Shown here piece by piece: positions 23,365-44,639 of a stretch of DNA of 64,000 nucleotides. Source of the stretch: an uncultured virus (IMG/VR IMGVR_UViG_3300042865_001090) (taxonomy: Duplodnaviria; Heunggongvirae; Uroviricota; Caudoviricetes); IMG/VR virus record IMGVR_UViG_3300042865_001090. One strand, 5' to 3'. How positions within the stretch are numbered: position 1 is the first letter of the stretch; the number at the start of each line of letters is the position of its first letter. Both the position numbers and the translations under genes were made by a program. The notes beneath the pieces were generated by a model that was given only the letters and a program-made list of their open reading frames with translations, had not been told where the DNA came from and ran no database searches.

Positions 23365-23818
23365 AACATGTCAACATATACCTAGTTCCACTAGAAACAG
23401 TGCTGACCAGGTGTGGCTCATCACCGGCATGAACAACCAATTGTGATGCAGATGGTCGCCAAACAGTGTTAAGACGCGGGTACACGAGGTCCCCACCCTC
23501 AAAGTTATCATTCAGATATACAACGCATCCGAATCTGCATGTCTTCTGATAGTTGTCAGTGTGTTCTCCCATTCCACCACCCTGGGAGATTCTTTGTATT
23601 CCACAAAATGGGCTTATAAAATCATAATCATCAAAATATAATTTAATTCGCTCATTTAACAAATCAAATATTGGTGATTGAAATGGGAATCTATTGCCAA
23701 CCCAATATTCCCCACCACCATTTTGTATTGACCAATCACTGCTACTCGCAGAATATGCGGTGCAGAGCAACTCAAGTCTTTCGTCTTCAGTTAGAAAAGA
23801 GTCGATGTGTAAAAGCAT
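23303..23818 (-). CDS. 2OG-Fe(II) oxygenase (prolyl 4-hydroxylase-like)
   Basis: MGEHTD, YLNDNFEGGDL, EPHLVSTVSSGTRY. Confidence 0.85.
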   Translation of the reverse strand: MLLHIDSFLTEDERLELLCTAYSASSSDWSIQNGGGEYWVGNRFPFQSPIFDLLNERIKLYFDDYDFISPFCGIQRISQGGGMGEHTDNYQKTCRFGCVVYLNDNFEGGDLVYPRLNTVWRPSASQLVVHAGDEPHLVSTVSSGTRYMLTCFVYGSETKNPSVNYELQHQN

Positions 23819-23839
23819 GTATGGAACCGCATTCCACTA

Positions 23840-24085
23840 TCACCACTTGTTTAGTGGGCAAACTGCAGTATTGAGTTTTGTCTTTAATGACATGAAGCAG
23901 CCACACTCTTTGCATTGTTTTGTCAACTTAATTAATTTTGGGCACGCTTCGCAAATCTGCATTCTAGTACTGGCAATTTCGTCTGTTGTGTAATTTGACT
24001 TATCCAACAAGTCGGTTGGCAATACCTTTGCCCCATTTTGTAATTGCATTTGTCTTCTTTTTTTGAATTCCTCGTAGGCGGTCAT
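23840..24085 (-). CDS. small Cys-rich metal-binding protein
   Basis: RMQICEACP...QCKECGCFM.LKT...CPLNKW. Confidence 0.7.
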   Translation of the reverse strand: MTAYEEFKKRRQMQLQNGAKVLPTDLLDKSNYTTDEIASTRMQICEACPKLIKLTKQCKECGCFMSLKTKLNTAVCPLNKW

Positions 24086-43131: not shown

Positions 43132-43482
43132 CTAAACCTGGGCGCGGACATTGGCGTTGAGGGTTCGCAAGGCATCAATACTCGTCCTGAGTGAAAGAAG
43201 TTTTTCTCGCTTTGCCCTAACTAGTGCTTCCGCGATTTCGTAATCCTCTTTCATTTGTTCCATCTTGTAATGAGACCATTGCTCTCTGTCGGTGATTGTT
43301 CTGTGCCCCTTGCCAGCAGCTCCTAGATATTCTTTTGCCCATTCCGCCTTGTACCTGGCGTCTTTTTTTGCAGCGTCCACGGCGAGTATTTCAAAGTTTT
43401 CAGTTTCTTTTTCGAGCAGGTCGAGCAGTCTCATCATTTCTCGTTCAATGTCCACCTGGCTGATTGGTTGACTTCTATTCAT
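43132..43482 (-). CDS. helical hypothetical protein
   Basis: Coiled-coil pattern, DALRTLNANVR C-terminus. Confidence 0.6.
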   Translation of the reverse strand: MNRSQPISQVDIEREMMRLLDLLEKETENFEILAVDAAKKDARYKAEWAKEYLGAAGKGHRTITDREQWSHYKMEQMKEDYEIAEALVRAKREKLLSLRTSIDALRTLNANVRAQV

Positions 43483-44005
43483 TTTCTATCCCTTCGAGTG
43501 GGGACCAGTCTATCTTCTCTAGCGCCGAGAGAGAAATGTTTGACCACTTATATTTTGCATTTCCAATTTTTGCCAAAACCATTTCTTCAAGAACCCACGC
43601 ATCGCACATATCATCAGCATGCCCCCCTTTCCAAACTATTCCCGTAATAGCTGATATTGCAGATATGACTTCTGACTTGCCAGCGTTCCCTTTGCCTGTG
43701 GCAAATTTTGCTCGACAAGTAGGAGGCACGATTATGTATGGAATATCAAGATTTAGCAAGGCAACCCTGACAACACCGCCAAGCTCCCCAATTGAGTGAG
43801 CCTGAGAATTTCTTGATGCAAAAGAATAACCCTCTATGGCTACCAATTGTATTTTGTTGGAAACCGCAATATTGCCAATTTCGCTGGCTATTTTCCTCAA
43901 TCTTTCAGCTCCAGATAAATCAAAAGAAAGATAACCAGCTTCTCCAGCATGGCAATACCCAGTGGATGTAAGTGATAGGTCGAGACCTAGGATGTTCATG
44001 GGCAC
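43475..44005 (-). CDS. ruvC: RuvC-like Holliday junction resolvase
   Basis: ILGLDLSLTSTG, VAIEG, ELGGVVR, KFATGKGNAGK, DDMCDA catalytic pattern. Confidence 0.85.
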   Translation of the reverse strand: MPMNILGLDLSLTSTGYCHAGEAGYLSFDLSGAERLRKIASEIGNIAVSNKIQLVAIEGYSFASRNSQAHSIGELGGVVRVALLNLDIPYIIVPPTCRAKFATGKGNAGKSEVISAISAITGIVWKGGHADDMCDAWVLEEMVLAKIGNAKYKWSNISLSALEKIDWSPLEGIENE

Positions 44006-44022
44006 GCAAAACTCTACCCCAC

Positions 44023-44055
44023 AAACAAAGACCCGCCGGGTGTAATCCCGACGGG
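44023..44055 (-). terminator. intrinsic terminator of RNA B
   Basis: CCCGUCGGG-AUUACA-CCCGGCGGG followed by UCUUUGUUU. Confidence 0.7.
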
Positions 44056-44149
44056 AATTAACACAGACAGACGTCCATGTCTACTTTGCGTAGTTATTCA
44101 CCACTAGACCTTGGACCACCTGCCTTTCTTTTCTCAGAAACGGCTGTAA
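44023..44149 (-). ncRNA. predicted structured small RNA B containing a complement of the 16S rRNA 3' tail
   Basis: TGnTACTCT extended -10 at 44156-44164; AGAAAGGCAGGUGGUCCA (44112-44129); long stem AGGCAGGU(G)GUCCA / UGGACGUCUGUCU with inner GUCUA/UAGAC and GUGGU/ACUAC; own terminator. Confidence 0.6.
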
Positions 44150-44208
44150 GACCTTAGAGTACCATTACAAAATTATTAGCTCAGGTAAAGAGATGTTGGC
44201 GCGCACAT

Positions 44209-44269
44209 AAAAAAAGAGACGCAAGAACCGGGGGCTGCACGTTGCCCTGTGCCCCCGGCCCTCGCGCCT
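44209..44269 (-). terminator. long GC-rich hairpin plus U7 (terminator/scaffold of RNA A)
   Basis: AGGCGCGAGGGCCGGGGGC pairs with GCCCCCGGUUCUUGCGUCU; the G.U pairs work only on the minus strand. Confidence 0.75.
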
Positions 44270-44286
44270 ATAACGGTCCTAAGGAT
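44209..44286 (-). ncRNA. predicted small RNA A with a 5' segment antisense to 23S rRNA helix 69/70
   Basis: TAGAAT -10 at 44291-44296; 5' CCUUAGGACCGUUAUAG (44268-44284); 19-bp stem with 4 G.U pairs (44217-44269); U7 tail. Confidence 0.7.
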
Positions 44287-44336
44287 ATTAATTCTACAAC
44301 TGAAATGTCTTTCGTGTTGTAAACGCAAGTAATGTT

Positions 44337-44639
44337 TTAACGTTCCCAGCCGTGCTTGGCTAAACCTAAATCAAAAGCAAGCTGCGGATAGTTTCCAATT
44401 CGATTGTGACATGGCCTGCATACCGCAAGAAGATTTTCCTCATCGAGTATCGACCCACCCTGAGAGCGTCTAATTATTTCGTGAATGTCGCAACTTCTGT
44501 TACGAACATATGTCAACTTCTCGTCATGTTCAGCAAATACAGGACACGCTTCGCAAAATGGTTTTTTTGACAAAAGTTTTTCTACGAGCGGGCGCCTCAG
44601 CAAATACTCTTCTTGTTTCTTTTTTGAACGATATTTCAC
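44337..44639 (-). CDS. small zinc-binding HNH endonuclease-like protein
   Basis: CEAC...DIHEIIRRSQGG...ENLLAVCRPCHNRI. Confidence 0.8.
   Translation of the reverse strand: MKYRSKKKQEEYLLRRPLVEKLLSKKPFCEACPVFAEHDEKLTYVRNRSCDIHEIIRRSQGGSILDEENLLAVCRPCHNRIGNYPQLAFDLGLAKHGWER

Follow-up and report, generated by a model that had tools for sequence, protein, structure and literature searches.

The 331-nt gap at positions 44006–44336 of the window (the analysed stretch of 64,000 nt, part of the 160-kb virus record G000) lies between an HNH endonuclease gene and a RuvC-like resolvase gene and contains two minus-strand RNA units, here called RNA1 and RNA2. We consider it reasonably likely that these are two small-RNA genes whose products pair with rRNA and hold free or immature subunits out of 70S formation in a non-selective manner; in the pairing of the RNAs with host rRNA itself we have good confidence. 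The observations comprise sequence, conservation, structure, complementarity, and a patchy co-occurrence of the two RNAs across related viruses.

In addition to the terminase, HNH, RuvC-like, and nuclease genes, G000 contains two WhiB genes and an ORF that, by eye, resembles ribonucleotide reductase. The record probably represents a large uncultured phage of actinobacteria, with a host group in the Acidimicrobiales/Acidimicrobiia. Its host-like methionine aminopeptidase (L206:2832–3913; G000 148831–149912) showed 94–95% identity to metagenome proteins of cellular type and 81% identity to the nearest named protein, from Ilumatobacteraceae, and this similarity makes a host in Acidimicrobiia probable. 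The phage enzyme lacks the SEC-C domain of its cellular-type match, and a ferredoxin-like ORF adjoins it. The two genes that flank the gap are also on the minus strand. The upstream neighbour is the ORF of the HNH endonuclease (44337–44639; Pfam PF01844, E = 2.7e-05), and the downstream neighbour is the RuvC-like gene (43475–44005; PF02075, E = 2e-05), whose product is approximately 30% identical to phage resolvases. A −10-like box (44011–44016) is located 5 nt before the GTG start of the latter gene, which is probably leaderless, and in relatives this box is kept whichever RNA precedes it.

The preliminary description called this the largest non-coding gap of the window, and the ORF inventory bore this out, the rival stretch at 23365–24084 being filled by two ORFs. 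Rfam 15 gave no matches in the window (best E in the gap, 0.62) and none for RNA1 or RNA2 in nine related loci, and no relative of the gap was found among cultured phages. The HNH and RuvC genes abut without any RNA in many relatives. At L072:2693–2922, the gap is filled by a manA-like RNA (RF01745; 42 bits, below the 55-bit threshold; E = 1.6e-07), indicating that the gap is partly an insertion hot spot; L046 has a similar-looking gap of 433 nt with no Rfam match.

RNA1 (44209–44286, approximately 77 nt, with ends placed from the promoter and the U run) consists of a 5′ guide, a long hairpin, and seven U residues. The guide (44268–44284) is a 17/17 exact complement of E. coli 23S rRNA positions 1914–1930, that is, of the loop and 3′ strand of helix 69 and the start of helix 70 (E. 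coli numbering). The terminator-like hairpin (44217–44269), identified by fold and covariation, was predicted at −42 kcal/mol (z = −4.97), a value reached by 0 of 200 shuffles, and the guide was predicted to have an unpaired probability of 0.67. This guide is the longest exact rRNA match in the genome, the next longest being 15 nt, and an exact 17-mer is expected by chance 0.08 times per genome and 0.0002 times per gap. When G–U pairs were tolerated in a scan of 72 intergenic regions, RNA1 ranked second, behind a chance match. Because chance matches in one genome score as high as RNA1 once G–U pairs are allowed, it is the relatives that decide the case. A scan of GTDB with a 20-nt RNA1 pattern yielded two matches, both true 23S genes, and no stand-alone cellular copy at exact match. 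These two genes (L202:1501–1520 and L203:1501–1520) carry a C at the normally A position 1913, which is either a variant or a sequencing error.

Related loci were collected via the flanking proteins, blind to the motif; 142 of the 160 had both genes, and the other 18 were left out because one flanking gene was absent. RNA1 was present at 86 protein-anchored loci (redundant contigs included), with a perfect 17-mer at 50 and pairing at all 17 positions, G–U included, at 62, so that the complementarity to the 50S bridge helix noticed in the preliminary description proved to be both exact in the window and conserved in relatives. Column conservation among the homologues was 92% in the guide versus 72% in the stem, and in 38 homologues two-sided changes were found in 15 of the 16 hairpin pairs, which none of 500 shuffles attained; stems rich in G–U pairs fix the strand. 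A wider motif scan returned at least 120 matches, and the 80 inspected by eye represented 50 distinct contexts, of which 46 had the hairpin, one was cut off, and three were chance matches. For a control 14-mer, the hairpin context was found in 0 of 58 cases.

Some copies depart from the window's form. In L107, the pairing extends to 28 nt in register, and in L009 the complement is longer by 5 nt, whereas the complement of the RNA1-like unit in L060 is shifted to 23S positions 1923–1940 with 17 of 18 positions paired; this last unit was missed by both profile models and was scored as "none" in the lineage counts given below. RNA1 also occurs in other gene contexts (L107 and L115, both partial records). 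Substitutions in the RNA1 core were not clearly pairing-preserving: G–U pairs accounted for 7 of 22 changes in nine ungapped variant cores, which is near chance, and true mismatches were present in L009, L034, and L067.

Both RNAs are preceded by promoter-like elements. That of RNA1 (44291–44323) is composed of TTTAC (44319–44323), 22 nt, and a TAGAAT box (44291–44296), with the guide starting 6 nt after the box, and that of RNA2 (44156–44189) of TTTAC (44185–44189), 23 nt, and TACTCT (44156–44161); their function is predicted from the sequence. The distance of 21–22 nt reported previously thus corresponds to 22 and 23 nt counted from the pentamer and to 21 and 22 nt from the hexamer. Of 50 distinct upstream regions from relatives, 43 had a TAnnnT box 6 nt before the RNA1 guide, and a TT(T/G/A)AC or TTGC(A/T) word occurred 21–23 nt further upstream in 37 of 45 RNA1 regions with the box; elements like that of RNA2 were recognised by eye. 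The sigma-70 scan reported neither promoter, and a terminator was reported for the second unit only. The sequence, the folds, and the relatives nevertheless agree with the earlier view of the gap as two promoter–RNA–terminator units. The two elements seem to represent one promoter class with the −35-like word 21–23 nt before the −10 box, a spacing 4–5 nt above the sigma-70 spacer, and one may speculate that these promoters are read with a phage activator such as WhiB.

RNA2 (44023–44149, approximately 127 nt, with predicted ends) has a multi-hairpin fold (z from −3.4 to −4.7). Its complement of the 16S rRNA 3′ tail (44112–44129) is made up of seven pairs, one bulged C, and nine to ten pairs with one G–U, and the proposed complementarity to the anti-SD of the 30S subunit is conserved, but with one bulged base and one G–U pair. 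A short hairpin (44090–44104) after a conserved UCUAG word had 100% of its cells paired and two-sided changes in three of four pairs, and the terminator-like 3′ hairpin with a U-rich tail (44032–44055) had two-sided changes in eight of ten pairs. In the alignment of 43 homologues, covariation was seen in both of these helices; a third, the closing helix, was 92% paired, all of its changes being one-sided. The 16S tail was the best rRNA site for 40 of the 43 homologues, and the pairing was also kept in two further copies found later by the model. The RNA2 pairing figures, including those that follow, are to be read with the core being part of the search pattern and the register being picked for best pairing. 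Across 33 haplotypes of the tail block, G stood opposite C in 98 of 99 cells, and the cells opposite U held 113 A, 18 G, and 1 C. The pairing ends at the end of the 16S tail, the next base being paired in 2 of 33 haplotypes, and the duplex was uninterrupted in none of the 33, with the break always in the SD core. Most of the RNA2 guide was predicted to be engaged in pairs within the RNA itself (mean unpaired, 0.36 and 0.30; for the window type, 0.04 and 0.37).

A subfamily comprising 16 of 45 RNA2 members has a mini-ORF, with ATG, TTG, or GTG located 6–8 nt after the SD core (L008, L011, L034, L037, L040, L042, L052, L068, L079, L101, L157, L467, L471, L486, L511, and G030:8696–8863), whereas the other 29, which form the window's subfamily, lack a start codon at SD distance. 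The mini-ORF is 13–19 codons long, with 14 codons in ten cases, across differing peptide sequences; shuffles reached such a length 14–17% of the time in each of six lineages. Its peptide starts with M-S-S-G, and members of this subfamily are mostly located before RNA1 and carry palindromic words at their 5′ terminus and within the final loop. No conserved ORF, such as the toxin gene overlapping the RNAs in the SprF1 style, was found in or across the gap. An ORF from a GUG inside the RNA2 core was dropped as a candidate because its length varied from 2 to >40 codons and it was not conserved, and a tmRNA-like tag, considered by eye, was also dropped, a tmRNA search having found none.

To compare the guides with potential host rRNAs, 30 metagenome operons and three references were used. 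The helix 69 stem differs in all 12 rows of the Arthrobacter clade, and the sister pair L593/L647 is of the E. coli type; a gene adjoining the L647 operon was named Acidimicrobiales. The RNA1 guide scored −31.6 against the helix 69 type of the Acidimicrobiales operon versus −21.7 against that of Actinomycetes. In the L647 operon, taken as a stand-in for the true host, its best site was at the expected place (−30.4 kcal/mol, versus −17.5 for the best 16S site), and with the same stand-in, the best site of the RNA2 guide was at the expected 16S tail. Ilumatobacter and Acidimicrobium have the 16S tail as expected (PMC6107228). Cleavage at C/ACCU in mycobacteria takes off the last 11 bases of the 16S rRNA (PMC12274833), which would place the mature 16S end where the RNA2 complement stops. 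The RNA1 variant of L044/L050 prefers the Actinomycetes type (−32.5 versus −28.8), yet its phage has a gene nearest to Acidimicrobiales. A predicted guide family perfect for Actinomycetes helix 69 was not found among 80 of at least 119 loci, where perfect guides of this type were chance matches only. One more candidate, a 15-mer at G000:145642 that is antisense to the 530 loop of 16S rRNA, was rejected as a chance match: it falls within a 59-codon ORF encoded on the opposite strand, and conservation was lacking across 21 further records.

In terms of co-occurrence, the RuvC proteins were clustered at 90% identity into 64 lineages and the RNAs were scored by profiles. Both RNAs were found in 19 lineages, RNA1 only in 11, RNA2 only in seven, and neither in the gap in 27, an association with an odds ratio of 6.7 (Fisher p = 0.0008, uncorrected for kinship). 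A single RNA was thus present in 18 of the 37 lineages with any RNA, and among the 19 two-RNA lineages, the gene order was one way in 11 and swapped in eight. RNA1 only was present in complete records with terminal repeats (G008, G015, and G016), the two RNAs are 2.8 kb apart in G014, both are absent from the near-complete G006 and G010, and the window's close relatives L002, L005, and L006 (short contigs) have RNA2 only in the gap. Among 11 hand-picked records at least 90% complete, RNA1 was found in ten and RNA2 in six, although the RNA1 share is inflated because some of the 46 hand-picked records were chosen via the RNA1 motif. RNA1 and RNA2 are therefore separate genes, associated but independent. 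What stands of the two-RNA module suggested in the preliminary description is that both RNAs are real, conserved, and associated, each being complementary to a functional site of one subunit; the module is not obligate, and the conserved synteny expected of it was broken by the single RNAs and the swapped orders.

Transcription, binding, the state of the target, and the effect on the ribosome are predicted in the following scheme. RNA1 would seed on the helix 69 loop and zip along 23S positions 1914–1930; the full duplex would need helices 69–70 to be open, as in free, split, or immature 50S subunits, and would prevent bridge B2a. RNA2 would clamp the single-stranded 16S tail of free 30S subunits, as the small mRNA rreB does. 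Since helix 69 is disordered in precursors and split 50S subunits and the 16S tail is free on the 30S subunit, free or immature subunits would be the favoured targets, and the share held back could serve for storage or throttling or could halt the assembly of new ribosomes. Helix 69 forms bridge B2a (PMC1190176), and helices 68–71 are disordered in 45S and late precursors and in HflX-split 50S subunits (PMC3737534, PMC11831132). The benefit of sequestration is not obvious, because a lytic phage needs translation. If the RNAs do pair with rRNA, we would name sequestration tentatively as the outcome; on the same premise, shielding is possible at a lower level of belief, decay tagging rather unlikely, and selective takeover doubtful.

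Taken as a whole, a shielding role, in which the RNAs cover the 16S tail and helices 69–70 against host ribonuclease toxins or turnover as counter-defence or RNA-based hibernation, seems unlikely. The patchy presence of the RNAs suits an accessory counter-defence gene, and an actinobacterial MazF cuts the 16S tail inside the stretch that RNA2 would cover (PMC12274833), with titles cited there naming MazF toxins that cut 23S rRNA; however, pairing at either site should inactivate the subunit until it is released. In other viruses, a sense copy of the helix seems to follow tRNA genes, as would be expected of a decoy, but the consensus fold of this family is weak (−1.7 kcal/mol), with two-sided changes absent. 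The complement in the window's RNA1 ends at 1930 and does not reach the helix 70 cut sites near 1940. It is improbable that the duplexes instead tag ribosomes for decay by exposing rRNA to host nucleases, with the ribosomes recycled into nucleotides for phage DNA. Cleavage at the subunit interface initiates rRNA decay in starved E. coli, and the ribonucleotide-reductase-like ORF recognised by eye would fit such a salvage, but the 17 bp of RNA1 are short for RNase III, the RNA2 duplex was free of interruption in 0 of 33 haplotypes, and its mini-mRNA subfamily looks built for initiation and not for cleavage. The target helices are the least stable part of the 50S subunit, which would also suit decay tagging.

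A takeover by an obligate module of two RNAs, with SD-led translation blocked to the advantage of leaderless phage mRNAs, the function originally suggested, is very improbable. The joint occurrence of RNA1 and RNA2 (p = 0.0008, without a correction for kinship) and some leaderless-looking genes, including the downstream RuvC-like gene, speak for it, but the single RNAs in 18 of 37 lineages, the order swaps, and the complete genomes with RNA1 only do not, and a helix 69 block would hit leaderless translation too, so that RNA1 would not spare leaderless initiation. Over-production of rreB, which bound 30S subunits, left growth unslowed (PMC5711450). In a crude, SD-favouring scan, 77 of 136 genes looked SD-led and 14 leaderless, and the structural genes for capsid, sheath, and tube/tail keep strong SD sites, as had been pointed out from the start. 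We regard it as similarly improbable as decay tagging that the RNAs do not act on rRNA, RNA1 being an rDNA relic, an attachment or homing site, or an RNA that guides one of the neighbouring proteins, HNH or RuvC, and RNA2 a cis leader or attenuator. Although the 17-mer lies in a known homing-endonuclease target region (PMC2602781), RNA1 has a fixed orientation, 6 nt after a −10 box and followed by a hairpin whose G–U-rich stems fix the strand. Five of 30 viral matches to a nearby 15-mer look like rDNA pieces, but RNA1 also occurs in the other gene contexts of the partial records L107 and L115; nuclease genes flank the gap on both sides, but they abut without RNA in many relatives. Whichever RNA lies ahead of it, the downstream gene keeps a −10 box of its own, which does not favour a cis leader, and no sign of pairing between RNA1 and RNA2 was detected (−13.1 for the same phage versus −12.7 for other phages). 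Neither a tyrosine integrase (PF00589) nor LAGLIDADG_1 (PF00961), the two Pfams searched for as marks of an attachment or homing site, nor a Nop domain (PF01798) was found in G000. The DNA-site and guide readings fail because of the orientation, the fixed spacing, and the missing enzymes.

To our knowledge, the known phage control of ribosomes is exerted by proteins, and the known bacterial sRNAs pair with mRNA. Trans-acting sRNAs of the RybB type have a 5′ seed and a terminator hairpin, and RNA1 resembles them in its conserved unpaired 5′ seed, variable hairpin, and U run and, judged by its sequence, in having its own promoter, but its predicted target is rRNA and not mRNA; within the phage genome, which was the range of the scan, no mRNA target or other site pairs with the seed at more than 15 of 17 positions. 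The rRNA modification guides of archaea and eukaryotes, which need protein partners and box motifs, likewise pair with functional rRNA, whereas here there is no Nop-domain gene and no Rfam match. TIGR-Tas or C/D guide systems combine a Nop-domain protein with a guide array; G000 lacks PF01798, and each record has a single full RNA1 match. Synthetic antisense oligomers directed at rRNA rely on the same base pairing to functional rRNA (PMC12897664) but are man-made. SprF1 (PMC8938821; for its prophage location, PMC10579593) is a mobile-element small RNA that binds ribosomes via a purine-rich stretch and lowers initiation. It differs in being the antitoxin of a toxin–antitoxin pair, with no long rRNA duplex described there, whereas RNA1 and RNA2, known here by complementarity, show no toxin partner and RNA1 would aim at 23S rRNA.

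RNA2 is closest in its features to rreB/rreR of Alphaproteobacteria, which are stand-alone RNAs with an approximately 16–17-nt complement of the whole 16S tail, partly in a hairpin (PMC5711450). The rreB RNA is 165 nt long, with 17 nt complementary to the tail and an ORF of 14 codons, and it binds the 30S subunit even though the complement is mostly in a hairpin. In the sister subfamily of RNA2, the start codon is spaced as in rreB and the ORF mostly comprises 14 codons; the 29 of 45 members that make up the window's subfamily lack a start codon at this position. RNA2 further differs in being phage-borne, in its actinobacterial host, and in a complement always interrupted in the SD core: against the complement of at least 16 nt by which rre RNAs are defined, it has 16–17 pairs with a bulge and a G–U, never continuous. 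Within the open-access literature covered, neither a natural or phage RNA antisense to helix 69 nor a phage RNA against the 16S tail was found. Catalogues of phage structured-RNA candidates have reportedly been published and may list RNA1 or RNA2 without a name. If true, the pairing of a virus RNA with 23S rRNA would add a new way of controlling the host and give antisense antibiotics a natural counterpart, and because the RNA1 target is identical in E. coli, it is easily tested there. RNA2 would bring the unexplained rre small mRNAs to phages, with coding and non-coding forms side by side. We lean towards the broader view that phages may use stand-alone RNAs against host rRNA at the subunit interface, with RNA1 directed against helices 69–70, RNA2 as an ORF-less rre-like clamp, and a sense decoy in other viruses, which would make helices 69–70 an unrecognised phage–host battleground.

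Complements of this region were also found in other viruses. A complete scan for the neighbouring 15-mer gave 30 viral loci. Five look like rDNA pieces; among the 25 that remain (duplicates included), the match is longer by 2 nt or more in 20. A family of seven loci contains a sequence like 23S positions 1919–1936 (L693:268–365 on the plus strand, L695, L703, L688, L711, L714, and L686). In the five with a tRNA gene, the element lies downstream of it with the sense copy on the tRNA strand, and this copy is able to fold as the helix 69 stem–loop does; no Rfam family was found for the element, and it is possibly an rRNA decoy. The build of RNA1 (complement, hairpin, and U run) is repeated in three other contexts, L698/L713, L699/L708, and L702, of which L698, L699, and L702 are unrelated viral contigs, and in L691 the helix 69–70 complement is presented in a hairpin loop. 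These four may possibly be convergent forms of RNA1.
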